A DNA stretch of 64,000 bases from Syntrophorhabdales bacterium (GCA_049521495.1 JBEKOT010000002.1:36206-100205), one strand, 5' to 3'. Numbered from the stretch's first letter, positions 13,054 through 35,919 are shown. Numbers and translations are program-made. Notes: generated from the sequence alone by a model not told the origin.

Positions 13054-13125
13054 GTAAGATTTGGACAAACAGCGGGCGGGTTCTTAGGCAAGGGGGTTTG
13101 GAGTCAATCAAAGAAAGGAGGAGTT

Positions 13126-14397: not shown

Positions 14398-14409
14398 GCA
14401 AAAAGGGTA

Positions 14410-14448: not shown

Positions 14449-14469
14449 TAAGAGGAAGATTTCGAAAGC

Positions 14470-17991: not shown

Positions 17992-18005
17992 GCAGGCCGA
18001 GGAAG

Positions 18006-18731
18006 ATGCCGATTCTCGATGTAAGAGGAATCTCAAAAGCGTTTGGCGGCCTTCTGGCCGTAAACGATACATCTTTCTACGTTAACGAAGGGGAAATAGT
18101 GGGGTTGATCGGCCCCAACGGCGCCGGGAAGACAACGGTCTTTCACCTTATCTCTGGGTACTATCGCCCTGACAGAGGCGCTGTATTTTTTGAGGAACAG
18201 GATATTACAGGGAAGAGGCCGAGCAAAATTTGCAAGCTCGGCCTCACCAGAACGTTCCAGAAGGTGCAGCCTTTTCCCACGATGACGGTGCTTGAGAATG
18301 TGCTGGTCGGTTGTCTCGGAAGATTTGGTAGAATAAGAGACGCAAGGGTAAAGGCATTGGAAGTCCTGGAGATTACCGAACTGGTGAAGATCAAGGATCG
18401 AATGGGTGAAAGCCTTACTCTTGGGCAATGGAAGTTGCTCGAGATTGCCAAAGCTCTCGCAACTGACCCTTCTCTCTTGCTTTTAGATGAGGTCCTTGCA
18501 GGAATGAATGGAGCCGAGGTAATGGAAGCGTTGATTCTTATTAGACAAATTAAAGATAGAGGGGTTACAATACTGATGGTGGAGCATGTGATGCAGGCAA
18601 TAATGGCGCTTTCGGATCGAATTGTTGTTCTGGCAAATGGGGCGAAGATAGCGGAAGGCTCACCACAGGATGTGACTCAGAATGAACATGTTATTAAAGC
18701 CTATCTTGGCGATGACTTTTTGACGATGTAA
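18006..18731 (+). CDS. ABC transporter ATP-binding protein, LivG-like
   Basis: 241 aa; FGGLLAVNDTSF, Walker A GPNGAGKTT, Walker B LLLLDE. Confidence 0.9.
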   Translation: MPILDVRGISKAFGGLLAVNDTSFYVNEGEIVGLIGPNGAGKTTVFHLISGYYRPDRGAVFFEEQDITGKRPSKICKLGLTRTFQKVQPFPTMTVLENVLVGCLGRFGRIRDARVKALEVLEITELVKIKDRMGESLTLGQWKLLEIAKALATDPSLLLLDEVLAGMNGAEVMEALILIRQIKDRGVTILMVEHVMQAIMALSDRIVVLANGAKIAEGSPQDVTQNEHVIKAYLGDDFLTM

Positions 18732-18750
18732 AAGAAACAAAGGAGATGGT

Positions 18751-19287
18751 GTGAAGATCGGAGAAAAGATCAGAAAGGAAAGGAAACTTGCCCAACTTAC
18801 GATCGAAACACTTGCACAGAAGATAGGTGTCAGCAAAATGACTGTGCAGCGCATTGAGACTGGAAAGACTTCCCCGTCCATTGCAGTGCTCGGGGATATT
18901 GCGCAGACCCTTCGAAAACCCATCACAACTCTTATCAATGAGAGCGAGAGCAGCGGGTATATAAAGATTGTCAGAATGAAAGAACAATTTGTGCTTGCTG
19001 GTGACAAGCTAACCTCGAGAATTCTCTGTCCGCGCGGGTCTCTTAGCATACCAGAGAGCGAAAGCATGGCGGTCTATTATGTTGAGGTCAAAGAGGGAAC
19101 GGAACTGGAGGGCCACAGAAATAAGGGATATGAATGGGTCTTTCAACTGAGCGGGACGACGGAGTTCAGTTATCACAAGAAGAAGTATATATGCAATGAA
19201 GGTGACGTGTTTTTCTACGATGGAACAAGAGTTCACTCAGCCAGATATCTAGGGGACAACAAATTTTTCCTTATTTCTTTTAAATAA
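18751..19287 (+). CDS. XRE-family HTH plus cupin-domain transcriptional regulator
   Basis: 178 aa, GTG start. N-terminus IGEKIRKERKLAQLTIETLAQKIGVSKMTVQRIETGK (HTH_3); C-terminal GHRNKGYEWVFQLSG...GDVFFYDG...H (cupin). Confidence 0.85.
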   Translation: MKIGEKIRKERKLAQLTIETLAQKIGVSKMTVQRIETGKTSPSIAVLGDIAQTLRKPITTLINESESSGYIKIVRMKEQFVLAGDKLTSRILCPRGSLSIPESESMAVYYVEVKEGTELEGHRNKGYEWVFQLSGTTEFSYHKKKYICNEGDVFFYDGTRVHSARYLGDNKFFLISFK

Positions 19288-19411
19288 GGGTTCGGTCCGG
19301 AATTCTGTGTTTGTTGGCCTTACCCTTTGGAACGGAACAAAGCATCCGCGTAATACGATCACGTAACGGTTTATGCTCGATCGAGTCAATCTGCAGGGAG
19401 GAGAAATCGAC

Positions 19412-21344: not shown

Positions 21345-21988
21345 ATGAAATACCCAAGACTCTTCTCGCCCATAAATATCGGAAGCTGCACGTTGCAGCC
21401 AAATCGCGTGATGATGACAGCCGCAGTCACAAGGCTTGCAGGCGAGGACGGAGATGTAACCCAGCAAATCATTGACAGATACCAACGTATTGCCATGGGT
21501 GGGGTGGGCGCTATTGTTGTTGAAGCAGCGGTCGTCCTCTCCTCCCGAAGCTCATTTAACTTGCGTATCAGTGATGATTCGTTTATCAGTCAGCTGAGAA
21601 ATTTGGTGCGCGCCATAAAGGGGGTCAGAGGTAAAGATCGGCATTCAGCTTATGCACTTCCTCAAGCTTTCCAGAAGGGGATGGAGACAGAAGGTTGAAG
21701 ATCTGACACCTGAAGAGATTGCGGAGATACCCACTCAATTTGCGGCGTCTGTGAGAGCAAGGGCCTCCGGTTTCGATTTTGTTGAGCTTCACATGTCACA
21801 TTTTACGACGCTTGCTTCCTTCCTCTCCTTAAGGAATAAGAGAAATGATGAATACGGTGGCGATCTTCTAGGTAGACTTAGGCTCCCCCACTGAGGTAAT
21901 AGTGGCCACCCGGCAATCTGTGGGAAATGATTACCCTGTCGGCCTGAGAATGCTCGGAGAAGAGTTCATTAAGGAAGGTAACACCCTT
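21345..21988 (+). pseudogene. OYE-family NADH:flavin oxidoreductase, 5' part (frameshifted, then interrupted by IS21-like element)
   Basis: MKYPRLFSPINIGSCTLQPNRV...MGGVGAIVVEA; continues in +1 (IGIQLMHF...NDEYGG) and again in +1 (PTEVIVATRQSVGNDYPVGLRMLGEEFIKEGNTL). The shifts fall at GGGGG (21620-21624) and CCCCC (21885-21889). Confidence 0.85.
21981..21988. repeat. target-site duplication ACACCCTT (left copy)
   Basis: An identical 8-mer abuts the other end of the element at 25941..25948. Confidence 0.85.
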
Positions 21989-22184
21989 AGAAGCACCGGC
22001 CTCAATCGGACCCACCCCTCGCCGGTGAAGAGACCCACCTGACCGGCGTTCGGCCGGCGGCAACGCCGCCGGTTTAGAGACCCACCCCCTCTACCTTCAA
22101 ACCCCCTTAGATTCTCCCGCAAGACTGTTCTCCCAAGCATCTTTGGTCCACACTCTTTCCAACCGACGTGGTTGCGGAGGAGCC

Positions 22185-22610
22185 ATGGAGAAGACGTGCC
22201 CCCACTGCGGGAAGAGGTTTCTCCCCCATCCCGCTGTTCTCAACCAGCAATACTGCGGAAGCGCCGACTGTCAGAGAGCCAGAAAAAGGAAGTGGCAGAA
22301 AGAAAAGCTCAAAAGCGACCCAGACTACCGGGAGAACCAGGCCGCGGCCCAGAAGGCGTGGCGCGAAAGAAACAGGGGCTACTGGAGAGAGTACCGGAAG
22401 AAAAACAAGACCTACAGCGAGCGGAACCGCCTCCGTCAGAGCGAGCGGAACCGTCAGAGGCGCGTGATTGCAAAGATGGACGAGCTTGGAGCAAAAAGCC
22501 TCGTATCTCCAGGCCGCTATCGGCTCGTCCCTCTTTACGGTAAGATTGCAAAGATGGACGAGCTCATCGTCGAAATCGGCGTCGTTGCAGGGGAATGCGC
22601 TGTCGGGTGA
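22185..22610 (+). CDS. Zn-ribbon, Arg/Lys-rich hypothetical protein (IS passenger)
   Basis: MEKTCPHCGKRF...YCGSADCQRARKRKWQKEKLK...; GGAGG before ATG 22185. Contains two copies of IAKMDEL encoded by a 21-bp direct repeat. Confidence 0.55.
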   Translation: MEKTCPHCGKRFLPHPAVLNQQYCGSADCQRARKRKWQKEKLKSDPDYRENQAAAQKAWRERNRGYWREYRKKNKTYSERNRLRQSERNRQRRVIAKMDELGAKSLVSPGRYRLVPLYGKIAKMDELIVEIGVVAGECAVG

Positions 22611-22623
22611 ATGATTGCAAAGA
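22466..22623 (+). repeat. three direct repeats of GATTGCAAAGA(TG)GACGA
   Basis: GATTGCAAAGATGGACGAGCT at 22466-22486 and 22544-22564 (identical 21-mers). A degenerate third copy, GATTGCAAAGAGACGACC, starts at 22613. Confidence 0.85.
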
Positions 22624-22706
22624 GACGACCAGCTTCTCATTTCTTCCGCTCCCCGTTATTCTAAGAGCCGATGGACTGACCTATAGAAGACGTCGCCGTA
22701 TCGAAG

Positions 22707-23498
22707 ATGGGCGAGAGATACGCAGCCTTCAGGATCGTGAGCCCGAAGGCGGACGAGGCCATGGCGAAGTCGATGAAGAAATACGGACAACTGTCCCCCG
22801 TCGTGTGCGCCAAGATCGGCGACGGCTGCGAGCTCGTCGACGGGTTCAAGCGCCTCCGGGCCTGCCGGAGCCTCGGAAAGGAGACGCTCAAGGCGAGGGT
22901 TCTCAACGGAACAGAAAGAGTCTTAAAGGCCGCAATCATACAGTTGAACCGGGGCAGATCGATAAGCGGGCTCGAAGAGGCCATGGTGCTCTCTTCTCTT
23001 TATAGAGACGACGGACTCTCCCAGACGGAGACCGCCGTTCTCCTGGGCAGGCACAAAAGCTGGGTATCAAGAAGGATATCTCTTATAGAGAGACTGAGCG
23101 ACGAGGTGCGACAGGACGTCAGGCTGGGTCTTCTTTCCCAGAGCATGGGCAGGGAGCTCGCGATGTTGCCGCGCGGCAACCAGAAGGAGGCGGCACATGC
23201 GATCATCAAGCACCGGCTCTCCACGAGGGAGGCGGCAAAGCTCATCGCGTATCTTCTGTCCCGCCCGAAGTGGGACTATCATTGCATACTCGCGAGCCCC
23301 TGGAAAGCAGTAGGCCCCCGCGAGCCTCGACCGAAGGGGTTCGCCATACGGCTCGCATCCTTTGCGCGTGTTTGCACTGCGGTTGCGGAAGGGATGAAAA
23401 CGATCGCCCCGGAAGAAGCACAAAGGCTCTCCGGGCTTATAGGCTCCGCCGTCGGCGTTGCGGAAGCCGCCATCGCCGCTCTGAAGGAGGCATTGTGA
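22707..23498 (+). CDS. ParB/Srx-like N-terminal domain plus HTH protein (IS passenger)
   Basis: 263 aa; KKYGQLSPVVCAKIGDGCELVDGFKRLRACRSLG (ParB-box-like, GxxRxxA), then LSQTETAVLLGRHKSWVSRRISLIERL (HTH). Confidence 0.7.
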   Translation: MGERYAAFRIVSPKADEAMAKSMKKYGQLSPVVCAKIGDGCELVDGFKRLRACRSLGKETLKARVLNGTERVLKAAIIQLNRGRSISGLEEAMVLSSLYRDDGLSQTETAVLLGRHKSWVSRRISLIERLSDEVRQDVRLGLLSQSMGRELAMLPRGNQKEAAHAIIKHRLSTREAAKLIAYLLSRPKWDYHCILASPWKAVGPREPRPKGFAIRLASFARVCTAVAEGMKTIAPEEAQRLSGLIGSAVGVAEAAIAALKEAL

Positions 23499-24940
23499 GC
23501 CGGGAGCAGTTCGAGCATACGCTCATCATGATGTACCGGGAGGGCTGGTCGATACGCTCCCTGTCCCGTTACTTTGGCACGTCGAGGAATGCGGTCCGGA
23601 GGATCTTAAGGGTCCACGAGAGGCGGAGGAACATAGGCCGCGATGTTCTCACAAAAAGGCTAAAGAGAGCCAGCAAGCTCGACGCCTTCGAACCAGAGAT
23701 GAAGAGGATCTTCGGCAAATACCCGGACATCACCGCCGTGCGCCTCCTTGAAGAGCTCAAGGAGGCAGGCTACGCCGGAGGGATCACGATACTCCGCGAG
23801 CGGCTCGCCGATATGAGGCCTCATAAGGAGCCGGTCATGCGGTTCGAGACTGAGGCGGGCCTCCAGGGCCAAATGGATTAGAGCCCCTATACGATCCCTT
23901 TCGCGAGGAGCGGCAAGGCAACCGTCCAGTGCTTCTCCTACATCCTCGGCTTCTCCCGCAGGCAGTACGTCGACTTTACGACGAGGAGAGACTTCTTTAG
24001 CCTTATCCGCAGGCACGAGGACGCCTTCCAATACTATAACGGCGTTCCCAGGGAATGTCTGTACGATAACGAAAAGACCGTCGTCCTCCGGTGAGAGGCG
24101 GGCAAGCCCGTCTTCAACCCGGCGTTTGTCAGCTTTATTACGCACTACAACTGCAAGCCCGTCGCGTGCCGGCCTGGGCGGCCTGAAACGAAGGGGAAGA
24201 TCAAGGCGCCGTTTAAATACGTAGAATTGAACCTTTTAGGCGGCAGGGAGTTCGAGGACCTGGAGGATTTGAGGAGAGTCGCTCGGTGGTGGCTGAAGGA
24301 GAAGTCAGACCTCCACGTCCACCGCACCACGGGAAAGCCTCCCCTTGAACTCTTCGAGGAGGAGAATTTCCAGCCTCTGCCCGCCCATCCCTACGATACT
24401 GCGGAAGTTGCATTGCGGGTCTGCGACGCGGAAGGATTTGTAGCCTTCGAGACGAACCGATACTCCGCGCCCTCGGACTACATCGCCGACATCCTCACGA
24501 TAAAGGCGACGGAGCATGAGATCCTCATCTTCAGTCCCGAGATCGACCTTATCGCCCGGTATGAAAGACTCCCCGCGGGCCAGGGCAAAAAGGTCGAGAA
24601 CCCCGACCACTTCGCGCCGAAGTGCGTTCGCTACGGCCTGGAGCCGGTGAGGGAGGCCTTCATCGCCCTGGGAGAAGCGGCAGACGAGTTCTTGAAAGGG
24701 CTAGTCGAAAAGCACCCGAGGAGGTGCGGCTTCCATGCAAGGTATATCCTCCGGATGAAAGAACACTATGAGAGCGGCGACATCCACGGCGCCGTCGAGC
24801 ACGCCCTCAAGTACGGCGCCTTCGACGCCCATGCGGTCGAAAGGATCCTGAAAGCGAAGGCCGAGCCCCGCACGCTCGAGTCCGCGAGAAACGAGAAGGC
24901 CCGGAAGGACCTAGAAAAGGCGCTGCCGAGGATCGCGTAG
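23495..24940 (+). pseudogene. istA: IS21-family transposase IstA with two in-frame stop codons
   Basis: GTG 23495 (GTGA overlap with the upstream gene). N-terminal HTH, then ...GLQGQMD-TAG(23879)-SPYTIPF...YDNEKTVVLR-TGA(24092)-EAGKPVFNP...KGKIKAPFKY...HVHRTTGKPPLELFEEE, all in one frame. Both stops sit where Trp (TGG) is expected. Confidence 0.85.
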
Positions 24941-24980
24941 CGGCCGCTCGACGAGTACAGCGAACTTCTGGAGAAGGACG

Positions 24981-25772
24981 ATGAAAGCTATGCCGGAAGA
25001 AACCCTGACGAGGATCAGGGGCCATCTGAAGACCTTGCGCCTGACGGCGATGGAGAAAGCCCTTGAGAAGGAGCTGTCGGAGGCGGCGAAGAAAGCGCTT
25101 GCTCCCATGGACCTCCTCGAGCGGCTTCTATCCATCGAGGCCAACGCGCTCATCGAACGAAGGATAGAGCGAAGGGTAAGGGAGTCGAAGCTCCCCGAGA
25201 GAAAGCTCCTCGCCGACCTCGACTTCGCCTTCCAGACGGGCGTCGACAAGGCCCAGATCATGGAGATCGCGAAGCTCGACTTCGTGGAGCGCAAGCAAGG
25301 ACTTGTCGTTGCGGGGAACTCGGGCACAGGGAAGAGCCACATTGCGAAAGCGCTGCTTCTTCTTGCCTGCGCGAGGCTTTACCGCTGCAGATATACCACT
25401 GCCGCCGGCATGCTCGCCGACCTCATGGCAAGCAGGGCGGACAACACCCTCCCTATGAAGCTTAAGGCCTACACCTCTCCCGACTTCCTACTCATCGACG
25501 AGGTGGGCTTCGATCGGCTGGAGCAGGAGGACGCGAGGAACGCTTCCCTATTCTTCAAAGTTATCGACGGCAGGTACTGCAAGGGGTCGACGCTCATTAC
25601 AACGAACATTGACTTTAGTCAGCTCGGGGACTATCTCGGCGATCCCGTCGTCACCACCGCCATCGTCGATCGCATGGTGCATCACTCCATTATCATCACC
25701 ATCCAGGGGCCGAGCTGGAGGATGCACGAGTCGAAGAAGCTGAACGCCAGGACAGGCAAAGCCAAGTCGTAA
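24981..25772 (+). CDS. istB: IS21-family helper ATPase IstB
   Basis: 263 aa; Walker A GNSGTGKSHIA, Walker B LLIDEVG, TTNIDFSQ. Confidence 0.9.
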   Translation: MKAMPEETLTRIRGHLKTLRLTAMEKALEKELSEAAKKALAPMDLLERLLSIEANALIERRIERRVRESKLPERKLLADLDFAFQTGVDKAQIMEIAKLDFVERKQGLVVAGNSGTGKSHIAKALLLLACARLYRCRYTTAAGMLADLMASRADNTLPMKLKAYTSPDFLLIDEVGFDRLEQEDARNASLFFKVIDGRYCKGSTLITTNIDFSQLGDYLGDPVVTTAIVDRMVHHSIIITIQGPSWRMHESKKLNARTGKAKS

Positions 25773-25940
25773 TCCCTCCAATCTTGCCTTAGAAGCAGAG
25801 GACGACCCACTGCGGCGATGGCGCGCCAGGGGGCGGGTCCTCAAACCGGCGCTAAACGTCCCCCTTAACTCAAGAACATGCAACTATTGGGTGGGTCCGT
25901 TCGTGTGGGCAAGGTGGGTTCATTCTTAAACGATGACTCT

Positions 25941-26404
25941 ACACCCTTCTCCAGAGCGAGCCGATCGCAAAGCGTTTCGCATTGCTTGACGTCGATTTTA
26001 TTAGTGTTTCTGCAGGCGAACGGTTTGAGGATGCAGAACAACCACGAGCGAATATGCCGATTTTTGCTGGAACGGGATATAGCGGGCACCGGATGAGCCC
26101 GAGGTGGTGGAGCCCCGATGGGACCCAGGTGTATTTGGCAGAAGGCATTCGGAATGCAGTAAGGGAAGTGGGGAAAGAGGTGCCAATCGTTACAGCCGGG
26201 AAGATCCGTATGCCTGGCCTGGCAGAAGAAATCCTTGAAAAGGAAAAGGCTGACATAATTGGTATGGCGCGAACCTTGTTGGCAGATCCAGATTGGCCCA
26301 ACAAGGCGAAGGCGGGAAGAGCCGAAGAAATTGTGAAGTGTGCGGCGCCCTTTTTTCTTGATTTTTTTCTTGACTTCCAAAGCTATATTATAGCTATAAT
26401 ATAA
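25941..26404 (+). pseudogene. OYE-family oxidoreductase, 3' remainder (after IS), 3'-truncated
   Basis: LLQSEPIAKRFALLDVDFISVSAGERFED...IVTAGKIRMPGLAEEILEKEKADIIGMARTLLADPDWPNKAKAG...EEIVKC. Reads on into promoter DNA (PFFLDFFLDF...) instead of the CxxCxxC Fe-S/FAD-NAD half present in the paralog 26463..28442. Confidence 0.85.
26370..26400 (+). promoter_or_regulatory. candidate sigma70-type promoter with operator-like AGCTATA-NN-ATAGCTATA element
   Basis: TTGACT (26370-75), TATAAT (26395-400, 19-bp spacer). AGCTATATTATAGCTATA at 26381-98 includes the perfect 14-bp palindrome ATTATAGCTATAAT. The same architecture recurs at 35980-36009. Confidence 0.45.
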
Positions 26405-26462
26405 CTAGCATGAAAAACCGGATGGTTTTGAGATCACTATTAAATAAATATAGGAGGTTACA

Positions 26463-28442
26463 ATGGGTAATCAGGCGAAATGGGATTACACACAATTCCC
26501 GGGCTATAAGAAATACCCGCATCTGTTCAAGCCGATCCAGATCGGTAAATTGACTATCCCGAACCGCATCAAGTATGCGGCCACCGAGGATAACCTGAAC
26601 GATAAGAACGGCTTTGTCACCGATGCAGACGTAGCTTATATCCGGGAGAGGGCCAAGGGCGTCGTGGGCGGCATTTGCACTATGCAGGGGGTTTACATGG
26701 ATGAGCCCCGGCAGGGTCAGGGCTATGTGGGCCAGGCTGCCTGCTGGGATGACAAGTACATACCCGGGCTGAAACGCCTCGCCGACGCGATCAAGGAGGA
26801 GGGCGCGATTGCCGCAACCCAGCTGATGCACTGCGGCCGTGTCGGGGCGGTAGACGTCGCTCAGTGTCAAGGCCCCTCGCCTGTTCCCCAGAGGCTGAGG
26901 ATCTTTCGGCCCGTCCAGGTGATGACGAAGGAAGATATCAGACAGAGCATCAAGGAGCACGTCGATGCGACGATCAGGCTGGTGAAAGCCGGTTTTGAGA
27001 TCGTGGAGATATCGGGCATCGTGGGTTACCTCATTTCAAATTTCATTTCGAGTTACACCAACAAGCGAACAGATGAATATGGTGGGGATATCAAAGGAAG
27101 GATGCGGTTCGTCACAGAAATCATCAAGGAGTGCAAGGCCGTCCTCGGTGACATCCCCCTCGGCATCAGGCTTTGCTCGGACGAGCTTCTGGATGACGTG
27201 CGAGGTAACACGCCTGAGGAATCGATGATCACTTACCAGATGGCCGAGGAAGCCGGTGTCGATTACATGAGCGTCACTCTGGGCTGGCAGGAATCCATCT
27301 ACCCCGTTATTTCCCGGGATATACCCCAGGGAAACTGGCTGCACCTGGCCAAGCGGGCGAAAGACCACATAAAGATACCCGTCATGATGGCCTACCGCCT
27401 CTTCGACCCGGCCATCCCCAACAAAGCAATAGGCGAAGGCATGACCGATATGTGGGAGATGTGCCGTCCTATGATCGCCGATCCACTCCTTCCGAAGAAG
27501 GTGCTCGAAGGGAACGAGGACGAGATCCGCTGGTGCGTGGCATGCAACGTGTGCCTCGCCAGGCTCTTCAGGGACGCACCCATGACCTGCTACATCAATC
27601 CGGTCTGTGCCCATGAGTGGGACCCCAGGTTCCAGATCAAGCCTGCCGATGTGAAAAAGAAGGTTATGGTAGTCGGTGCCGGAGCAGCGGGTATGGAGGC
27701 GGCCTGGGTTGCGGCCGAGCGGGGACACGAGGTCCATGTCTACGACAAACGGGGTGAACTGGGCGGAACGCTTCTCGAAGCGAGAAGGGCGCCTTATGGT
27801 GATGACGAACTCTATTCCGCAATCAACTTCGCAAGGGCCAAGGGCGAGAAAGCAGGCGTGGAGTACCACATGGAGACCCCAGTAACGCCGGAACTGATCG
27901 AAGAAGAAGCACCTGACACTGTTGTCCTTGCTCTTGGGGCGAAACACATAAAAGGCACCGCACCCGGATTTGAAAGGGAAAACGTGGTAGGCGTCCACGA
28001 CGTTCTCGCAGGCAAGGCAAAGGTCGGTGAGAACGTGGTCGTGTGGGGGAACTACAAGCCCGGCGTGGGCGTCGCCCTCTTCCTTGCGAAACAGGGGAAG
28101 AAAGTGACCATAGTGGGTAAGCACAAGGATTTCGCCATCGACGTCAATCCCTCTTTTCGTTGGCGTTATGCGGCCTTCCTCAGACAGAACGGCGTGAACG
28201 TATACAACGACTGCGACATCGCGGAGATTACAGGTGAAGGTGTTACGGTAGCCACCTATGACGGTTACAAGTTCCCTTTGAAAGCCGATACTGTGGTCTG
28301 CACCGAAAGGGCGCCCAACAAGGATCTCCAGGACGCAGTGAAGGAGCAGGGCATCGAGCTCTATACGGTTGGGGATATGGTAACACCACGTAACCTGTCG
28401 AGTGCCGTGCACGACGGGTACAAGATAGGGCTGAAGATATAA
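26463..28442 (+). CDS. OYE-domain / [4Fe-4S] / FAD-NAD(P)-binding oxidoreductase (2,4-dienoyl-CoA reductase / 2-enoate reductase family)
   Basis: 659 aa; N-terminal OYE TIM barrel (PNRIKYAAT..., QLMHCGR, TNKRTDEYGG), Cys cluster CVACNVCLARLFRDAPMTC, then VMVVGAGAAGMEAA Rossmann domains. Confidence 0.9.
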   Translation: MGNQAKWDYTQFPGYKKYPHLFKPIQIGKLTIPNRIKYAATEDNLNDKNGFVTDADVAYIRERAKGVVGGICTMQGVYMDEPRQGQGYVGQAACWDDKYIPGLKRLADAIKEEGAIAATQLMHCGRVGAVDVAQCQGPSPVPQRLRIFRPVQVMTKEDIRQSIKEHVDATIRLVKAGFEIVEISGIVGYLISNFISSYTNKRTDEYGGDIKGRMRFVTEIIKECKAVLGDIPLGIRLCSDELLDDVRGNTPEESMITYQMAEEAGVDYMSVTLGWQESIYPVISRDIPQGNWLHLAKRAKDHIKIPVMMAYRLFDPAIPNKAIGEGMTDMWEMCRPMIADPLLPKKVLEGNEDEIRWCVACNVCLARLFRDAPMTCYINPVCAHEWDPRFQIKPADVKKKVMVVGAGAAGMEAAWVAAERGHEVHVYDKRGELGGTLLEARRAPYGDDELYSAINFARAKGEKAGVEYHMETPVTPELIEEEAPDTVVLALGAKHIKGTAPGFERENVVGVHDVLAGKAKVGENVVVWGNYKPGVGVALFLAKQGKKVTIVGKHKDFAIDVNPSFRWRYAAFLRQNGVNVYNDCDIAEITGEGVTVATYDGYKFPLKADTVVCTERAPNKDLQDAVKEQGIELYTVGDMVTPRNLSSAVHDGYKIGLKI

Positions 28443-28461
28443 AACTAACAAGGAGGATACC

Positions 28462-28983
28462 ATGCCTGTTGACGCAGAAAAGGAAATAACGCGGCTGTGG
28501 AGGGCGCTCCACGGGGCACAGGATACGGCCATAAAGAACTTCTACCAGTGGCGTAAAGTGGCGGTCGAGCTTGCCGGGAAGAGCGGCAACGCCATGGAGA
28601 TCGGACTCAAGGGATGGGAAGCGATGGCCCAAGACCTTGGGAAATCCTACCTGCCCCGGCTGAGCTTCAAGAAAGGCGAGCCGGGATTTATTCAGATCGT
28701 GGGGGGATTGATCGCCGGGACGTGGCAGAGCTATGGAGCCGTAGTGGACGTGAAGCTGGGTCGGAGCCCCACTGAAGCGATCATCACGTGGTCGCGGTGC
28801 CCGTGGCCAGCCTTTGCGAAAGAGTTCAATGTGGCTATGAAGGAAGATCTGGCAGGATGCAATCTTGTGATGGCAACGGTTGTTAACATGGCGAATGCCT
28901 TTATGGGCACGGACCTGAAGGTCGAGACGATGAAGGCTATTCCCCGAAGTGAGGGTGCGTGCGTGAGAAGATTGTACAAATAA
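28462..28983 (+). CDS. hypothetical protein, possibly L-2-amino-thiazoline-4-carboxylic-acid-hydrolase-like family
   Basis: 173 aa, AGGAGG SD. C-terminal pattern SRCPW...LAGCNL...EGACVRRL resembles my recollection of that family. Weak call. Confidence 0.35.
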   Translation: MPVDAEKEITRLWRALHGAQDTAIKNFYQWRKVAVELAGKSGNAMEIGLKGWEAMAQDLGKSYLPRLSFKKGEPGFIQIVGGLIAGTWQSYGAVVDVKLGRSPTEAIITWSRCPWPAFAKEFNVAMKEDLAGCNLVMATVVNMANAFMGTDLKVETMKAIPRSEGACVRRLYK

Positions 28984-28993
28984 GGAGGTATAT

Positions 28994-29200
28994 ATGTCAG
29001 CCCAGATAGATCTGGAGAAATGCAAGAGATGCGGCGGCGCGGTGCAGCCACTGTGCGTGGAGATTTGTCCGGACCAGGCGATCAGGATACAGGATGACAG
29101 GCCAGTGGTCACCGAGTTTCTGTGCGAGGACTGCAATGAGTGCGGCTTTGTCTGTCCTGACCATGCCTTAAAGATTCCCCTTGAGAAAGTGACGTTCTAA
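28994..29200 (+). CDS. 2x[4Fe-4S] ferredoxin
   Basis: 68 aa; CKRCGGAVQPLCVEICP and CEDCNECGFVCP motifs; AGGAGG SD. Confidence 0.85.
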   Translation: MSAQIDLEKCKRCGGAVQPLCVEICPDQAIRIQDDRPVVTEFLCEDCNECGFVCPDHALKIPLEKVTF

Positions 29201-29216
29201 GACCAGGAGGTATTGA

Positions 29217-29633
29217 GTGAAGATCAATAAAATAGACCATCTGTGCATTGCGGTGAAGGACCTCGAAGAGGCAAGGAAGCATTGGGAGCCCATCCTTGGA
29301 AAAGGGCCCGACGATTCTTACGTTGACGAGCTTGAAAAGATAAAGGTTGCCAGATACTGGCTGGGTGGTGTCGGCTTCGAGTTGATGCAGTCGACGGCAC
29401 CCGACGGCGATGTGGCAAAATGGATCGAGAAGAGAGGTGAAGGTATCATGCTCATCGGCTTCAACGTGGACAACACGCGTGAAGCAATGGCGGAGCTCAA
29501 GCCCAAAGACTACCCCTTTATCGGAGGGGCGAGGCCGTGGCGGGACTGCGAGTTTGCCTTCGTCCATCCCAAGGCAGTCAACGGCGTGCTTCTCGAGCTC
29601 ATCGATTATAAGTGGAATGAGCTTAAGAAGTGA
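29217..29633 (+). CDS. VOC-superfamily protein, methylmalonyl-CoA epimerase-like
   Basis: 138 aa, GTG start behind AGGAGG; IDHLCIAVKDLEEARKHW..., FELMQSTAPDGDVAKWIEKRGEGI, AFVHPKAVNGVLLELI. Confidence 0.75.
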   Translation: MKINKIDHLCIAVKDLEEARKHWEPILGKGPDDSYVDELEKIKVARYWLGGVGFELMQSTAPDGDVAKWIEKRGEGIMLIGFNVDNTREAMAELKPKDYPFIGGARPWRDCEFAFVHPKAVNGVLLELIDYKWNELKK

Positions 29634-29702
29634 GAAGCAAGAAGGGCTCGCGGGGAGGGAGGTGCAAGCGTTTCGCCCCGCGAGTTTCAGGGGGTCAACG
29701 GC

Positions 29703-31049
29703 ATGGCTGATGCGATTCTGGTGATCGGCGGCGGTGTAGCGGGCATCCACGTTGCACTCAACGCAGCCGAGTACGGGAGCAAGGTGTACCTTGTGGATGA
29801 TACGGCAAGTATCGGGGGCATGATGGCCCGTCTGGACAAGACATTTCCCACAAACGACTGCTCCATCTGTATCGAAGCGCCCCGGATGTACGAAGTGGAC
29901 AACCACGAGAACATAGAGATCCTCACCAACACGGAGGTCAGACGCATACAACGGGTTAATGGCGATTTCAAGGTCCGCATGGTGAGAAAGGCAAAGTATG
30001 TAGATGAGGAGAAGTGTACTGGGTGCGGTGCGTGCGTGCAGGCGTGCCCCGTTGCACTCCCCGATGATATGGACGGTAAAATCGGAGGAACGAGGAAGCT
30101 CATCTCCATGCCTTTTCCCCAGGCGGTGCCGAATATGGGGGTAGTAGATCCCCGCTGCCGGGGAGGGAAGATGCGGGAGAAGGGCGCCTGCGTGGGAGGC
30201 TGCGTAGTCGACTGCAGCCAGTGCACCGAGTGCCCCATCGCCCTTTGTGTCAAGGCGTGCATTAAGGAAGGAAAGAACGCGGTCGTGCTGTGGGACAAGG
30301 ACAAGCCAATCGACGTGGAGGTCAAAAGCATCGTTGTTGCGTCAGGTATCAGGGCCCCTGTCCCTCCGGACGGCACTTATGGCTACAACGTCTATCCCAA
30401 TGTGATCACCAACCTCCAGTTCGAGCGCCTCATGAACGCGGGAGGACCGACAGGGGGTGATATCATAAGGCCTTCGGACCGGAGACACCCGAAGAGGATC
30501 GGGTGGATCCAATGTGTGGGACGGGGCCTGAAGGAAGGGCTCAGATACTGCTCAAAGGTTTGCTGCATGATTGCGGCCAAACAGACGATCATCACGAAAG
30601 AGCACGGGGCAAAGGTGGATACGGTCATCTTCTACAACGATCTCAAGGCGTACGGTAAAGGGATGTGGTCCTTCTACAGGAAGGCCATCGAGCACGGGGT
30701 CCGATACGTCCGCGGCCGCCCCTTCGATGTGACGGAAGACCCGGACCGCAACCTCACTGTCAGGTACGAACACCTGGACACGGGAGAGATAAAGGAGGAG
30801 AAGCTCGATCTCCTTGTCCTTTCCATGGGGCTGGAGGCGGCGGAGCGGAACAGAAAGCTGGGGAAGGTGTTGGGGATCGAGGTCGACGAAGACGGCTTTT
30901 TCAAGGAAAAGGACCCTCTGATGGCGCCGCTGGAGACGAATGTGGAGGGGATTTACCTTTGCGGCGGAGCAACCGGGCCGATCGATATTTCAGAATCCGT
31001 AATCCAGGCATCTGCTGCGGGTCTGAAGGCGGTGTCGAGGCAATCATGA
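29703..31049 (+). CDS. HdrA-like FAD/Fe-S oxidoreductase (lacks the N-terminal HdrA domain)
   Basis: 448 aa; ILVIGGGVAGIHVALNAAEYG, DKTFPTNDCSICI, KCTGCGACVQACP; C-terminal GIYLCGGATGPIDISESV. Confidence 0.8.
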   Translation: MADAILVIGGGVAGIHVALNAAEYGSKVYLVDDTASIGGMMARLDKTFPTNDCSICIEAPRMYEVDNHENIEILTNTEVRRIQRVNGDFKVRMVRKAKYVDEEKCTGCGACVQACPVALPDDMDGKIGGTRKLISMPFPQAVPNMGVVDPRCRGGKMREKGACVGGCVVDCSQCTECPIALCVKACIKEGKNAVVLWDKDKPIDVEVKSIVVASGIRAPVPPDGTYGYNVYPNVITNLQFERLMNAGGPTGGDIIRPSDRRHPKRIGWIQCVGRGLKEGLRYCSKVCCMIAAKQTIITKEHGAKVDTVIFYNDLKAYGKGMWSFYRKAIEHGVRYVRGRPFDVTEDPDRNLTVRYEHLDTGEIKEEKLDLLVLSMGLEAAERNRKLGKVLGIEVDEDGFFKEKDPLMAPLETNVEGIYLCGGATGPIDISESVIQASAAGLKAVSRQS

Positions 31050-33094
31050 GTGAGATCAGGGTAGGCGTCTTCATCTGTAACTGCGGGTCCAACATCGGAG
31101 GATTCCTTAGCGTGCCGGAAGTGGTCGAGTATGCCCGAACCCTTCCGGACGTCGCCTTTGCGGACGAGAGTAAATGGTCCTGCTCGGTAGACGCCCTTTC
31201 CCAGCTGCAGAAGTCCATACAGGAGCATGGGATCAACCGGGTGGTCGTTGCTGCATGCACGCCCAGAACACACGAGCCGCTCTTCAAAAGGACCGTCAAG
31301 GAAGTGGGCCTTAACCCGTACCTTCTCGATTTCGTAAGCATCAGGGAGCAGGATTCGTGGGTGCACATGAACGATGCGCGGGTGGCCACGGAGAAGGCGA
31401 AAGATCTGGTGAGGATGAGTGTCGCCAAGGCCCGGCTACTCGAAGAAGGCCACGAGATCAAGTTGCCGGTGAGCAGGGACTGCGTCGTCATCGGCGGGGG
31501 CGTGGCAGGTATGACGGCCGCCGTCCATCTCGCAAGGCAGGGTTTCAATGTGACGATCGTCGAGAGGGAGCCCGAATTGGGCGGGCTTTTGAACAAGCTC
31601 GATTCGCTTTCTGAGGGCCTAACCCCTGCGGAACTGATGAACGCAAAGATAGCAGAGGTGCAGCGATATACGAATATTAAGGTCTATACCGGGACGGTCA
31701 TCGAGCATGTTGCCGGTTACATAGGCAATTACAAAATCACCGTGAAAGGGCAAAGCGGCGAGAGTGGAACCTTCGATACCTCTACTGTGATTGTGGCCAC
31801 GGGTATGCAGGAGGTGGAACCAACCGGCCAGTTCTGCTACGGAGAGAACGACCGCGTGGTCACCCAGCTTCAGCTTGAAGGGTTGCTCAGGCAAGGGAAG
31901 GTAGAGGGTGTCAAGGACCTTGTCATGGTCAACTGCGTGAACTCGATGAATGGGAACAGGGGCTGCTGTACCATCGGCTGTCTGGTGGCCGTGAAGAATG
32001 CGCTGGCGGTGAAGAAGCTTATCAAAGATGCACGCGTCTCTATCCTCTTCCGGAACCTGTGCATGGTAAAGGGCGAGCGAGAAATCATCGAGGAGGCAAA
32101 AAAAGCGGGCATAAAATTCATCCGCTTCCCCGATGACCGCTATCCCCAGGTGTCGAATAACGGCGTGCTTTCCCTCAAGGCTTTTGATACACTTCTTGGG
32201 CGGGAGCTGACCATTCCGGCAGACCTCCTTGTCCTGACTACGGCCTACGAAGGTGACAGGAGTGTCGACGAGGTCAAGGGGCAGCTCAAGGTTTCCAGCA
32301 ATCCCGAGGGTTTTTTTCAGGAGGCCCACATCAAGCTCGGCCCCCTCGATTTCCCTGCCGACGGTGTCTTCCTTTGCGGCGGGGCCCGTTCACCGAAGAG
32401 CATCAAGGACGCATGTGAAGAGGCCGTCGGCGCTGCCATGCGCGCCTCTATTCCCATGAAGAGGGGCTATATCGAGGCAGAAGGCATTGTGGCCGGTATT
32501 GACCTCGGTGCATGCAACGGGTGCGGACTCTGTGTGAAGAACTGCCCCTACGGGGCCATAACGTGGAAGACAGACAAGGAACCTGAGGTCATTCAGGCGC
32601 TCTGCAAGGGATGCGGCCTCTGCGCGGCCGATTGCCCAAAGAATGCCTTACAGATCGTCCATTTCTCCGATAGTCAGATCCTGGCACAGGTGGAGGCAGC
32701 ACTGCAGGAGAGCCCAACCGATAAGATCGTGGGGTTTGTCTGCCATTGGTGCTGCCACGGCGCAGTAGACATGGCAGGTGTGAGCCGGCTCCAGTATCCG
32801 CCCCACGCGCGGCTGATACGCGTCATGTGTTCGGCCCGTGTCTCATCCGCGCATGTGGAGCGGGCCTTCGAGCTCGGCGCGGCAGGGGTCTTCGTAGGTG
32901 GGTGCGAGTTTCCGACCTGCCACTACATCGTGGGCAACTACAAGGCGGAAAAGAGGATGGAGCGGGTCAGAAAGAGTCTTGCAAAAAAAGGGTTCGACCC
33001 GGCGAGGCTGTGGGTGGGATGGTGTTCAGCGGCAGATGGGCCAAAGTTTGCGCATATCATGCGGGGCATGGTGAAAGAGCTTAATCTGGAGTGA
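31046..33094 (+). CDS. HdrA-like flavoprotein fused to MvhD-like domain
   Basis: ATG 31046 (ATGA overlap with the upstream stop); the tracked ORF's upstream extension overlaps the previous gene. IRVGVFICNCGSNIGG...VVVAACTPRTHE...REQDSWVH, VVIGGGVAGMTAA, CNGCGLCVKNCP/CKGCGLCAADCP; C-terminal IVGFVCHWCCHGAVDMAG...VMCSARV... (MvhD). Confidence 0.85.
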   Translation: MSEIRVGVFICNCGSNIGGFLSVPEVVEYARTLPDVAFADESKWSCSVDALSQLQKSIQEHGINRVVVAACTPRTHEPLFKRTVKEVGLNPYLLDFVSIREQDSWVHMNDARVATEKAKDLVRMSVAKARLLEEGHEIKLPVSRDCVVIGGGVAGMTAAVHLARQGFNVTIVEREPELGGLLNKLDSLSEGLTPAELMNAKIAEVQRYTNIKVYTGTVIEHVAGYIGNYKITVKGQSGESGTFDTSTVIVATGMQEVEPTGQFCYGENDRVVTQLQLEGLLRQGKVEGVKDLVMVNCVNSMNGNRGCCTIGCLVAVKNALAVKKLIKDARVSILFRNLCMVKGEREIIEEAKKAGIKFIRFPDDRYPQVSNNGVLSLKAFDTLLGRELTIPADLLVLTTAYEGDRSVDEVKGQLKVSSNPEGFFQEAHIKLGPLDFPADGVFLCGGARSPKSIKDACEEAVGAAMRASIPMKRGYIEAEGIVAGIDLGACNGCGLCVKNCPYGAITWKTDKEPEVIQALCKGCGLCAADCPKNALQIVHFSDSQILAQVEAALQESPTDKIVGFVCHWCCHGAVDMAGVSRLQYPPHARLIRVMCSARVSSAHVERAFELGAAGVFVGGCEFPTCHYIVGNYKAEKRMERVRKSLAKKGFDPARLWVGWCSAADGPKFAHIMRGMVKELNLE

Positions 33095-33097
33095 TTT

Positions 33098-34852
33098 ATG
33101 GAGGCTGGAAACGAGGCGAGAGAGAGCGGCAGGTTTGAAATGGAAGAAAAGGTGTACGACGCGTCCCTGTTCCGCGTCTGCGAGCAATGCGGTTGCTGTA
33201 GTTCTGCCTGCCCCCTGACCGGTAAGGACGGCTTCAATATCCGGCGCATCATACGCCATCTCGAGCTCGACCTCGCCGAGGAAGTAACCCGTTCGCACCT
33301 GCCATGGTTCTGCACCACCTGCGGACGCTGCGAGGACGCGTGCCCTAATGGTATCAAAATCCTCGATCTCGTACGCTATGTACGGAGCAGGTCTCCTGCA
33401 ATCCCCGAGAGCGCGCCCTGTGTCGAGGCGTGCCCGGTGCATATCGATATCCCCGAGTATGTCCGGCTTATTGCCGAGGGGAAGCGGGATGAGGCCTACG
33501 GAGTGATCCGCCAAAAGGTACCCTTTCCGGCAATTCTGGGCCGGGTGTGCACGCGGTTCTGCGAGGAAAAGTGCCGACGGAAAGAGGTGAACGGAGCAGT
33601 ATCCATCTGCGCGCTGAAGCGCTACGCGGCGGACTGTCGAGACAGAACGGGCGAGCAGGTCCGTACGGCGGCGCCTGGTACAGGAAAGAAGGTGGCCGTC
33701 GTGGGCGCAGGCCCGGCCGGCCTTACCGCTGCCTTTTATCTCAGACAGAAGGGGCACGAGGTAACGCTGTTCGAGGAGAGAGAAGAGGCGGGCGGGATGA
33801 TGCGGTTCTCGATCCCCGCCTATCGGCTGCCTCCCGATGTCCTCCGCAGGGAAATCCAGGATGTACTCGATGCTGGAATCGAGCTGCGGACAGGTAAGCG
33901 ACTGGGGCGGGACTTCGATCTGGCCTCGTTGAAGAACGATTATGCGGCGGTCTTTGTTTCGACTGGCGCCCAACTGAGCCGAAGGATCTCCCTTCTCGGC
34001 GCTGATCTGGACGGGGTCCTGTGGGGCCTCGATTTTCTCTTCGCTGTAAAGGAGAACCGGGTAACCACGGTCAAGAACAAGGTGGTGGTGATCGGGGGTG
34101 GAAACGTCGCTATCGACGTTGCCCTTACCGCCCTCCGCCTGGGCGCTGAAAGGGTTGTTCTTGCATGCCTTGAGACGTTTGAGAAGATGCCGGCAAACCG
34201 CTGGGAGATCGATCAGGCCGTCGAAGAGGGTATAACGATCATGACTTCATGGGGACCTGAGCGTGTGATCGGAACCGGCTCGGTTTCAGCTGTAGAGCTG
34301 GTTCGCTGTACCTCCGCATTTGACGAGGAAGGGAAATTCAATCCGATCTATGATACGGACACGAAGACGACAATCGATACTTCCCAGGTGATCCTTGCCG
34401 TCGGTCAGGCTTCAGACCTATCTTTCAACAGTCGAGAGACGGAACCGATCCCGGTTGAGGCAGGATTACTCGCGGCCGACCCCGATACGCAGGCGACGGG
34501 GATAGAAGGTGTGTTCGCAGGCGGCGACGTGGCAAAGGCCCCGGGTACCATCATCGAAGCCATCGCCGCAGGACGAAAGGCCGCGTCCGCGATCGACATA
34601 TATCTTGGCGGCAACGGCGTCCTGAGCGGAAGCGCGGTAGAGCGGGTCGGGCGGATCATCTCCGAAAGGAGAGAGAAGGGCTTCGCCGACCGCAAGAGGA
34701 TTGAACCCATCAGGATTCCCGTAGAAGAGAGGAAAGAAACCTTTCACGAGGTGGAAGCGACGTTCGAGGAAGCTGAAGCCGTGAGGGAGGGGAGTCGATG
34801 CTTCGGTTGCGATCTGGAAATAGAACGCTGCAGGCAGAGAAGACTTTTATAG
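33098..34852 (+). CDS. Fe-S cluster domain fused to GltD/NfnB-like NAD(P)H-dependent FAD oxidoreductase
   Basis: 584 aa; CEQCGCCSSACP...CTTCGRCEDACP; PCVEACPVHIDIPEY...RVCTRFCEEKC (GltD N-terminal cluster); VAVVGAGPAGLTAAFYL, VVVIGGGNVAIDVA, GVFAGGDV. Confidence 0.85.
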   Translation: MEAGNEARESGRFEMEEKVYDASLFRVCEQCGCCSSACPLTGKDGFNIRRIIRHLELDLAEEVTRSHLPWFCTTCGRCEDACPNGIKILDLVRYVRSRSPAIPESAPCVEACPVHIDIPEYVRLIAEGKRDEAYGVIRQKVPFPAILGRVCTRFCEEKCRRKEVNGAVSICALKRYAADCRDRTGEQVRTAAPGTGKKVAVVGAGPAGLTAAFYLRQKGHEVTLFEEREEAGGMMRFSIPAYRLPPDVLRREIQDVLDAGIELRTGKRLGRDFDLASLKNDYAAVFVSTGAQLSRRISLLGADLDGVLWGLDFLFAVKENRVTTVKNKVVVIGGGNVAIDVALTALRLGAERVVLACLETFEKMPANRWEIDQAVEEGITIMTSWGPERVIGTGSVSAVELVRCTSAFDEEGKFNPIYDTDTKTTIDTSQVILAVGQASDLSFNSRETEPIPVEAGLLAADPDTQATGIEGVFAGGDVAKAPGTIIEAIAAGRKAASAIDIYLGGNGVLSGSAVERVGRIISERREKGFADRKRIEPIRIPVEERKETFHEVEATFEEAEAVREGSRCFGCDLEIERCRQRRLL

Positions 34853-35694: not shown

Positions 35695-35919
35695 ATGTTT
35701 CAGCGGATCTGGGAGACAAGCAAGACGACAATGAGACTGCATATAGTGCGTTCACTCTGCAATTCTTGCGGTTTATGCATCAGGGTCTGCCCGTGTGATG
35801 TTTTTTTCGAAGACGATGGCCTCATCATCGTGCTCGATGCGGATGCCTGTATCGGGTGTCGCTCTTGTGCCGATGAGTGTCCTAATGCCGCCATTTCCGT
35901 CGAAGCCTATAGCGATTAA
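35695..35919 (+). CDS. 2x[4Fe-4S] ferredoxin
   Basis: CNSCGLCIRVCP and CIGCRSCADECP. Real start may be the internal ATG at 35731 (MRLHIV...). Confidence 0.75.
   Translation: MFQRIWETSKTTMRLHIVRSLCNSCGLCIRVCPCDVFFEDDGLIIVLDADACIGCRSCADECPNAAISVEAYSD

Follow-up and report, generated by a model that had tools for sequence, protein, structure and literature searches.

A co-conserved gene cluster pairing an NCR-like OYE reductase with a split HdrA module: a candidate confurcating or bifurcating system for CoA-ester reduction

A tightly packed run of seven intact open reading frames (ORFs), all on the plus strand at 26463-34852 of a 64,000-nucleotide stretch from a Syntrophorhabdales bacterium (GCA_049521495.1 JBEKOT010000002.1:36206-100205; the whole stretch, which is called the window below, matches part of the 101,875-bp JGI metagenome contig Ga0116108_1000051, dataset 3300009519, in reverse complement), encodes an OYE-type flavoenzyme related to 2-naphthoyl-CoA reductase (NCR), three small accessory proteins, and three proteins of the HdrA, HdrA-MvhD and HdrC-GltD types. 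From the combined analyses we propose that the HdrA-type proteins form a confurcating or bifurcating complex through which NADH and ferredoxin would drive reduction by the OYE below the potential of NADH, the predicted substrate being a CoA ester; in our judgement this reading may equally well prove right or wrong. Relative to known HdrA complexes, the OYE partner, the splitting of HdrA into two proteins and the HdrC-GltD fusion are new.

Type III (OYE) aryl-CoA reductases carry out hydride transfer at the lowest potentials known in biology, and their natural electron donor has been a question since 2013, with papers up to 2026 describing it as "most likely a ferredoxin". The cluster provides a concrete candidate power supply for such OYEs, consisting of a dedicated ferredoxin and a split HdrA/MvhD/HdrC-GltD system that would tie the OYE to NADH and to a further ferredoxin. 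The few HdrA-based complexes known to bifurcate would also gain a partner enzyme and a subunit arrangement not seen among them before.

Conservation of the seven-gene cluster

The domain assignments of the seven gene products, made from Pfam and NCBIfam profile matches, are far beyond chance (Table 1). An initial annotation of the window, made from the sequence alone, had given the same seven-gene content, which is correct in all essentials, together with a spacing of 10-70 bp and one ATGA overlap. The overlap lies at 31046-31049 and the gaps measure 19, 10, 16, 69 and 3 bp, in agreement with that spacing except for the final gap. Promoter and terminator motifs between 25.7 and 35.6 kb were no commoner than in shuffled sequence, and the scan is silent on the limits of the operon.

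We assembled 104 loci and mapped the partner genes in them with tblastn; the set was not de-replicated, and the OYE was the route to all but three of its members. A scan of a genome collection with the single OYE sequence yielded 13 loci, and a metagenome scan with an alignment was far more productive. When the core was counted with OYE orthologues of at least 66% identity, the run of genes for the OYE, the 173-aa protein, the ferredoxin (Fd-A) and the VOC protein was complete at 67 of the 68 orthologous loci with at least 1.4 kb of downstream sequence. The Hdr module (short HdrA, HdrA-MvhD fusion, HdrC-GltD fusion) was represented by genes at 42 of the 54 loci with at least 3 kb beyond the VOC gene; at three more of these 54, that space is taken up by a beta-oxidation trio which at other loci stands ahead of the Hdr genes. 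Reciprocally, three loci picked through HdrC-GltD homologues (57-59% identity), and chosen only for their long contigs, all carry the four-gene OYE module, the arrangement being convergent in one, split by an ABC transporter and a ligase in another, and collinear in the third.

Three gene orders were found. With O for the OYE, u for the 173-aa protein, f for the ferredoxin, V for the VOC protein, a for the short HdrA, A for HdrA-MvhD, G for HdrC-GltD, and H, D and T for the beta-oxidation trio (a 3HCDH/ECH fusion, a DUF35/HMGCS-like protein and a thiolase, respectively), these are O-u-f-V-a-A-G, as in the window; O-u-f-V-H-D-T-a-A-G; and O-u-f-V with H-D-T-a-A-G on the opposite strand. The cluster recurs, in several rearranged forms, in assemblies of Syntrophaceae, Desulfobacteraceae, Syntrophorhabdaceae, Desulfatiglandales and Dehalococcoidia. 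We conclude that the genes are clearly co-conserved; a lack of such conservation was one of the outcomes that the initial annotation had named as speaking against its proposal.

The OYE belongs to a large clade. Among the candidates scored, 2114 proteins matched at E < 1e-60, and the best 120 of these, from metagenome-assembled genomes (MAGs) of Syntrophorhabdaceae, Desulfatiglandales, Dehalococcoidia and Desulfobacteraceae, are all 659-663 aa long, at least 68% identical, and named in the source only "FAD-dependent oxidoreductase" or "2,4-dienoyl-CoA reductase". Metagenomes from sediment, peat and aquifers contain the system in abundance, and it occurs in syntrophic and sulfate-reducing anaerobes of several phyla; the reaction is therefore probably a frequent step in anaerobic carbon turnover, currently annotated only under those two names.

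At 25 of 38 loci, the gene immediately upstream of the short HdrA encodes another conserved ferredoxin, Fd-B, about 68 aa long. Elsewhere in the window, about 840 bp past the cluster, a 74-aa ORF with two canonical CxxCxxCxxxCP motifs lies at 35695-35919 (+); it is unannotated in the source, which places a 65-aa gene on the opposite strand there, and it may encode a 2x[4Fe-4S] ferredoxin with weak similarity to Fd-B. In a Bacillota clade of OYE homologues (~50% identity), a module of OYE, unknown protein and ferredoxin genes adjoins a 2-oxoacid:ferredoxin oxidoreductase and has no Hdr module, a context consistent with ferredoxin dependence of the OYE.

The recurrent neighbours of the cluster are 3HCDH/ECH fusions, thiolases, DUF35/HMGCS-like proteins, CoA-transferases, Etf, acyl-CoA dehydrogenases, TetR or GntR regulators, TRAP or Liv-type transporters and CoA ligases, with a TetR regulator upstream of the OYE at 23 loci. 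Some loci also hold UbiD/UbiX with a PaaK-like ligase, Hcr/xanthine-dehydrogenase-like trios, hydantoinase A/B of the carboxylase type, AbfD-like proteins or IorAB. These neighbours point to catabolism of carboxylic acids via CoA esters, often in organisms or contexts linked to aromatic compounds. Because none of the context genes (TRAP, UbiD/UbiX, Hcr-like, hydantoinase, AbfD-like or IorAB) is constant, no substrate can be assigned.

The two modules compared with characterized enzymes

In a search of all PDB sequences, the closest match of the 659-aa OYE was NCR (6qkg; E 8e-142, 477 bits), with residues 18-659 aligned end to end to NCR residues 14-670. The OYE carries the NCR-type architecture of TIM barrel, [4Fe-4S] linker, FAD domain and second alpha/beta domain, and shares its three-domain organization with type III aryl-CoA reductases more widely (DHNCR, AprB-E); its four cluster ligands, Cys358/361/364/376, are invariant in 20 orthologues. 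By BLASTP it is 41% identical to NCR over its full length and 32% identical to a DHNCR-like paralogue that adjoins NCR in an N47-like MAG. E. coli FadH (1ps9) belongs to the same superfamily, has the same domain order and also acts on CoA esters, but it scores only 260 bits, with an alignment that breaks down past residue 560. The FadH NADPH motif GxGxxG (G-C-G-G-I-G in 1ps9) is degenerate in the OYE (G-N-Y-K-P-G), and the position of FadH His26, which is Val38 in NCR, is occupied by a nearly invariant Glu, E42. FadH or enoate reductase was rejected as the closest relative on these grounds, and the broad class given in the initial annotation (enoate, dienoyl-CoA or aromatic-CoA reductase) is thereby narrowed to the NCR kind.

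Structural work on NCR identified Y197 as the proton donor, R245 as an FMN-binding residue counter-charged by E341, an NCR-specific Glu that makes the FMN potential lower and has no counterpart in FadH, and N247, T280, G282 and Y320 as contacts of the enolate; W459 blocks the NADPH site, and E446, E541 and D649 make the FAD surroundings acidic (PMC6502838). When these residues were mapped onto the window OYE by alignment, we found Y197, R245, E341, T280, G282 and Y320 kept (as Y189, R236, E332, T272, G274 and Y311), a set that covers the catalytic Tyr, the Arg at the FMN together with its counter-Glu, and the majority of residues that stabilize the enolate, along with I194, V195, F379 and D649. 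N247 is replaced by Cys and H284 by Gln, and F375 and F573, two of NCR's three Phe-cluster residues, are changed too. The NCR-type Glu equivalent to E341 and the extra Glu, E42, should lower the FMN potential. To judge from the alignment, the FMN site is tuned like that of NCR and the FAD surface is different. Like NCR, the OYE has no canonical NAD(P)H motif and would be expected to use an external low-potential one-electron donor. Unlike NCR, it falls in a separate and very large clade, and its gene is followed by three accessory genes that are lacking at the NCR locus; we place it in a clade of its own, related to type III aryl-CoA reductases, and do not file it as an NCR orthologue.

At the NCR locus of the N47-like MAG (GCA_018817425.1, 5745-16284), the NCR gene is flanked by genes for a molybdopterin oxidoreductase, a FAD_binding_2 flavoprotein, a second, DHNCR-like OYE that is 34% identical to NCR, and a fused NuoE/NuoF-type protein. 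These genes may include a different candidate module for electron input into NCR itself.

The gene for the 173-aa protein follows the OYE gene at 85 of the 95 surveyed loci that carry the OYE, and its product has an invariant R-C-P-W-P ... A-I-P-x-G motif. The initial annotation listed it as a small unknown protein; it is not wholly an orphan, as 9 of 12 orthologues match PF14196 (ATC_hydrolase) weakly, with a best E of 9.6e-5. A single-sequence AlphaFold2 model of it was poor (pLDDT 53). Fd-A is always encoded inside the OYE module, has all 8 Cys 100% conserved in 66 orthologues, and matches the AprB model weakly (E 2.4e-5). The third protein had been called a methylmalonyl-CoA-epimerase-like VOC protein, and of this description the VOC family stands. 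Its closest PDB matches are methylmalonyl-CoA epimerases (5e-9 to 4e-4), but its TIGR03081 score of 74.9 bits is below the cut-off of 114.95, and "GIMLIG" takes the place of "GIHHIA" in the top PDB match, 3oa4 (annotated as a glyoxalase), a stretch that we take to hold a metal-ligand His. Methylmalonyl-CoA epimerase was rejected as its identity for these two reasons.

Both HdrA-like proteins were compared by alignment with 5odc_A, the HdrA subunit in the solved structure of MvhADG-HdrABC. The short HdrA aligns to 5odc residues 146-561, the thioredoxin-reductase-like FAD core, and lacks both the N-terminal domain, as the initial annotation had stated, and the C-terminal domain. It keeps the K409 equivalent (in CCMIAAK), the Cys of the adjacent [4Fe-4S] cluster (C386/399/403/404) and the CxxC pair C194/C197 (in NDCSIC), and all 19 of its Cys are 100% conserved in 33 orthologues. 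Its inserted ferredoxin domain is enlarged, with 12 Cys against 8 in 5odc HdrA; the four extra, strictly conserved Cys (C152, C163, C167 and C171) fall in residues 149-171 and would be enough for an additional Fe-S cluster that is absent from solved HdrA structures. The long HdrA aligns only to 5odc residues 1-235 and 321-651, and comprises the N-terminal cluster domain, the FAD core, the C-terminal 2x[4Fe-4S] domain and, fused after it, an MvhD [2Fe-2S] domain; the Lys is kept, the Cys set is permuted, and the CxxC and the inserted ferredoxin domain are missing. It is thus fused to MvhD as the initial annotation described, but it is not the full HdrA of that description. The inserted domain is found only in the short protein, and the N- and C-terminal domains only in the long one, so that the two are complementary halves that together make one complete HdrA unit, in place of one truncated and one full HdrA. 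On the strength of its conserved flavin-site residues, we propose the short HdrA as the bifurcating subunit.

The FAD core with Lys409, the cluster Cys, the CxxC and an HdrC-like dicluster are common to the cluster and to MvhADG-HdrABC and HdrA2B2C2, and HdrA2 has MvhD fused to it, as in the long HdrA. In contrast to these complexes, in which HdrA is not divided between two complementary proteins, the cluster has no hydrogenase, formate dehydrogenase or F420 module. Domain scans of the seven genes and their neighbours found no HdrB or CCG-domain protein, and thus no heterodisulfide site, so the cluster is not a heterodisulfide reductase and that identity was rejected.

The last protein of the cluster had been described as a CxxCxxCxxxCP dicluster joined to a GltD/NfnB module, which was borne out, the dicluster being specifically HdrC-like (PDB HdrC 8rvv_C, 1.8e-15) with two invariant CxxCxxCxxxCP motifs. 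Its C-terminal 480 residues have the 2x[4Fe-4S]/FAD/pyridine-nucleotide layout common to NfnAB and GltD (PDB 9n5u, NfnA, 7e-102; 4ylf_B, 5.5e-72), with eight more conserved Cys, enough for two [4Fe-4S] clusters, and with the FAD- and nucleotide-binding motifs present. After the second strand of the nucleotide fold, it has C-L-E-T where five NADP-dependent relatives (T. maritima NfnB, P. furiosus NfnI, 9n5u, 8oh5 and 9bov) have Y-R-R-(T/S). Because this Arg pair is lost and an acidic residue is gained, the protein is probably specific for NADH, which narrows the NAD(P)H coupling suggested by the initial annotation to an NADH-type site ("YRR" to "CLE"). It differs from NfnAB in the Arg-Arg to Leu-Glu exchange, in its additional HdrC-like N-terminal domain, and in the lack of a partner, since domain scans found no NfnA/PyrK-type gene in the cluster or among its annotated neighbours.

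The cluster also resembles two larger systems. In a cryo-EM study of BamE of class II benzoyl-CoA reductase, a fused HdrA dimer has only one FAD with bifurcation hallmarks; electrons enter through the C-terminal ferredoxin domain and an MvhD-type adaptor, the high-potential electron passes through a FAD-adjacent cluster to the HdrC-like part of BamD, and the low-potential electron passes through the inserted ferredoxin domain to the catalytic subunits (preprint 10.64898/2026.04.10.717634). Like this enzyme (BamB-I, with BamDEF), the cluster combines a predicted CoA-ester reductase with two HdrA units, one of them with the hallmarks, an MvhD-type adaptor and a putative HdrC-type high-potential exit. 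Unlike it, the cluster has no tungsten-containing AOR-type BamB, no BamC, no NuoEFG-like BamGHI and no HdrB-like CCG domain, its HdrA units are separate proteins, and the HdrC-GltD fusion would make NAD rather than ETF the high-potential partner. No AOR-family protein was found in the cluster or among the window genes scanned. The second resemblance, in domain architecture, would be to QmoABC-AprAB of sulfate reducers, in which QmoA and QmoB presumably show the same split into a short HdrA and a long HdrA/MvhD; QmoC is an HdrC-like dicluster fused to a module contacting an external redox pool (membrane haem-b), the genes are linked to aprAB, and electrons presumably reach the AprAB flavoenzyme through a 2x[4Fe-4S] ferredoxin-like protein, as they would in the cluster. 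Unlike that system, the cluster is predicted to be soluble, has an NADH-type GltD flavoprotein for the haem-b part, and has an OYE and not APS reductase as its partner; no apr or sat genes were found among the neighbouring window genes scanned.

The initial annotation had been unable to assign the genes to a described complex. This remains so, as no complex of such composition was found in the open literature searched for an OYE, dienoyl-CoA reductase or NCR together with HdrA, MvhD or heterodisulfide reductase, and neither a paper on an isophthalate cluster nor the D. multivorans genome paper has a link to the cluster.

A candidate electron path and its alternatives

In the scheme that we propose, the OYE, the 173-aa protein, Fd-A and the VOC protein would constitute a CoA-thioester reductase of the NCR type. 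Single electrons would enter at the surface FAD of the OYE, pass to its [4Fe-4S] cluster, and leave as hydride from a low-potential FMN, with Fd-A as a dedicated wire or shuttle to the FAD and with the VOC protein probably epimerizing or isomerizing the product at the alpha-carbon. The short HdrA, HdrA-MvhD and HdrC-GltD would associate in a soluble complex of the Qmo or BamE kind, in which the HdrA pair would be an asymmetric heterodimer with a single complete bifurcating FAD site, located in the short HdrA. The highest-potential port would lead through the HdrC-like clusters and the GltD FAD to NAD+/NADH, the middle port would be formed by the C-terminal ferredoxin domain and MvhD, and the lowest port by the inserted ferredoxin domain. 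NAD(H), Fd-B, and the OYE with Fd-A would thus be the three partners that bifurcation needs. Because the HdrC-like domain is fused to the NAD module, NAD is suggested to lie on the high-potential arm, which would make the reaction one below the NADH potential and not an ordinary exergonic enoyl-CoA reduction; if NAD does occupy that port, the other two couples would lie below -320 mV.

Two variants of this scheme are nearly equal. In the preferred one, NADH and reduced Fd-B would confurcate at the FAD of the short HdrA, the reverse of the canonical Hdr reaction, and the electron pair would reach Fd-A and the OYE by way of MvhD and the C-terminal ferredoxin domain. This would supply the OYE at about -400 mV, beyond what NADH alone could reach, for a substrate at about -350 to -420 mV. 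In the other, reduced ferredoxin would enter on the MvhD side and its electrons would be split between NAD+ and the OYE, the latter reached through the inserted domain and Fd-A, for a substrate below about -500 mV; this variant resembles an older model for class II benzoyl-CoA reductase. We slightly prefer confurcation because Fd-B adjoins the subunit with the inserted domain, because the FAD surroundings of the OYE are less negative than those of NCR, and because the cost in ferredoxin is lower. The substrate would be a resonance-stabilized acyl-CoA, either aromatic or a conjugated cyclic dienoyl-CoA, whose product would be fed into the beta-oxidation pathway encoded by genes often found with the cluster.

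Several observations weigh against this proposal. The ports are assigned by analogy with the HdrA and BamE structures, and the parts they play could be interchanged. A plain dienoyl-CoA reductase step would be just as compatible with the frequent beta-oxidation, Etf and acyl-CoA dehydrogenase neighbours. The genuine NCR locus, encoding a protein 95% identical to the crystallized enzyme, has a second OYE and a NuoE/NuoF-type protein and no HdrA, so the link to Hdr proteins is not general to NCR-type enzymes. In the OYE, W459 of NCR is replaced by Glu (beside an indel), E446 by Thr and E541 by Lys; because these features, which tune the NCR FAD to low potential, are not kept, the OYE may work at a higher potential than NCR. 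Nine of the 54 loci have no Hdr genes within the available sequence and show a housekeeping context with an AbfD/HpaB-like gene nearby, which indicates that the OYE module can be encoded alone, at least locally. The window itself has no Fd-B at the usual position, because the VOC and short HdrA genes are just 69 bp apart. Finally, what the sequences show is the gene content, the cofactor motifs, the complementary HdrA split, the HdrC-NAD fusion and the co-conservation of the genes; the physical association of the proteins, the ports, the direction of electron flow and the class of substrate are inferred.

One alternative is that the cluster carries out NADH-driven bifurcation, with the OYE reducing a high-potential enoyl- or 2,4-dienoyl-CoA (E0' near 0 mV) and the surplus reducing ferredoxin, as a functional analogue of Bcd-EtfAB or CarCDE with HdrA in place of Etf. 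The very frequent embedding of the cluster in beta-oxidation genes would be explained in this way, and the TetR gene upstream of the OYE at 23 loci, the membership of the OYE in the FadH superfamily, its less negative FAD surroundings, and the position of Fd-B beside the short HdrA, which carries in its inserted domain the canonical site of ferredoxin reduction, all agree with it. We nevertheless consider it rather unlikely, because the HdrC-like domain, to which the NAD module is fused here, carries the high-potential output and not the donor input in every solved HdrA-type complex, and the ports would need a non-canonical order; moreover, the FMN site has the NCR-type Glu and an extra Glu in place of the FadH His, and NCR is a much closer relative than FadH. 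A reading that we consider unlikely is that the Hdr-like trimer does not bifurcate at all but acts as a linear NADH:ferredoxin/OYE oxidoreductase, a soluble QmoABC with the GltD flavoprotein in place of the membrane quinol site, feeding Fd-A and the OYE in the way presumed for Qmo and AprAB. The parallel with the layout of Qmo (short HdrA for QmoA, HdrA with an MvhD-like domain for QmoB, HdrC fusion for QmoC) and the weak AprB-model match of Fd-A speak for it, but the flavin-site hallmarks of bifurcating HdrA are strictly conserved in the short HdrA, the conserved Fd-B suggests a third partner, and plain transfer from NADH to the OYE would need no ~1700 residues of extra flavin and Fe-S protein, given that FadH binds NADPH directly. 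In favour of such a wire is also that not all HdrA- or Etf-containing complexes bifurcate (PMC5861303).

Association of the two modules could also be no more than co-regulation of neighbours, with the Hdr trimer acting as a general, Nfn-like NADH/ferredoxin balancer or serving beta-oxidation or Etf, and the OYE drawing on the ferredoxin pool. In several arrangements the Hdr genes and the beta-oxidation trio do form one transcription unit opposite the OYE strand, and the nine loci with an OYE module and no Hdr genes in reach, like the Bacillota clade, are compatible with independence of the two. However, the reciprocal search recovered the OYE module at all three loci, the linkage survives three gene orders and several phyla, and no NfnA-type partner is present, so that we regard this explanation as very improbable.

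If the proposed HdrA-driven reduction by the OYE is pursued to its furthest form, the cluster would be a widespread counterpart of class II benzoyl-CoA reductase that uses only flavins and Fe-S clusters and is otherwise free of metal cofactors, in which the HdrA module would drive an NCR-like OYE to dearomatize monocyclic or otherwise hard aryl-CoA substrates without ATP or tungsten. We think this extension quite improbable. Were it true, anaerobic ring reduction would have a fourth strategy, and OYE-type aryl-CoA reductases would have their first identified physiological electron-donor system.

Genomic surroundings

The G+C content is 55-59% over the insertion element described below and the seven-gene cluster (22000-34000) versus ~48-50% in the flanks (8-22 kb and 34-38 kb), a contrast that would fit acquisition of the cluster as one block by horizontal transfer. 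Directly upstream of the cluster lies the pseudogene of a short, TIM-barrel-only OYE, in fragments at 21345-21698, 21652-21894 and 25982-26404 that match positions 2-91, 140-204 and 264-341 of the Oxidored_FMN model; its reading frame is broken, and an insertion of about 4 kb separates the second piece from the third. The insertion is an IS21-family element (~22020-25851) with 24-nt inverted repeats at 22067-22090 and 25828-25851 and with its end motif repeated at 22020-22039. Its ORFs encode IstB (24981-25772), an IstA remnant, made up of a Mu-transposase C domain (24227-24940) and a helix-turn-helix (HTH) ORF (23270-23881), and a ParB-HTH ORF (22707-23498) also lies inside the element.

Farther upstream, an acyl-CoA operon at 7362-21298 includes genes for MeaB (7362-8309, minus strand), a CoA ligase (8533-10161), large and B12-binding subunits of the methylmalonyl-CoA-mutase family (10208-12324), a Liv-type ABC transporter, a thiolase with a DUF35/ChsH2-like protein (16361-17991), an HTH-cupin regulator and an acetyl-CoA-synthetase-like ligase (19373-21298).

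Table 1. Genes of the OYE-Hdr cluster and of the downstream CBASS locus, with window coordinates and supporting matches (E-values where given).
Feature	Coordinates	Strand	Evidence
OYE/[4Fe-4S]/FAD three-domain reductase, 659 aa	26463-28442	+	Oxidored_FMN 2e-58, Pyr_redox_2 5e-26
173-aa accessory protein, weakly ATC_hydrolase-like	28462-28983	+	no match of the window copy in Pfam, NCBIfam or PDB sequence searches
Fd-A, 2x[4Fe-4S] ferredoxin, 68 aa	28994-29200	+	Fer4
VOC/glyoxalase-fold protein, 138 aa, GTG start	29217-29633	+	Glyoxalase_4 5e-16
Short HdrA, 448 aa	29703-31049	+	HdrA2 model 7e-136, model positions 141-557
Long HdrA fused to MvhD, 682 aa	31046-33094	+	HdrA2 model 1.7e-188, FlpD/MvhD 1.6e-43
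HdrC-like dicluster fused to GltD/NfnB-type flavoprotein, 584 aa	33098-34852	+	HdrC 6e-18 (residues 26-97), Fer4_20, Pyr_redox_2
CBASS SAVED-endonuclease effector	40904-42418	-	PADLOC
CBASS CD-NTase cyclase	39762-40886	-	PADLOC
CBASS E1-E2/Cap2	37957-39876	-	PADLOC
CBASS JAB/Cap3	37462-37953	-	PADLOC

Downstream, the cluster is followed by a convergent GNAT gene and then by an island with a CBASS locus and an integrase. The CBASS locus is a complete type II system on the minus strand (37462-42418; PADLOC E-values 1e-51 to 5e-174). The island, a mobile one, also holds a tyrosine integrase (55335-56444), a DUF3854 protein (50552-51154) and, at 46943-47695, an ORF with a LuxI-type autoinducer-synthase domain (E 1.8e-12).

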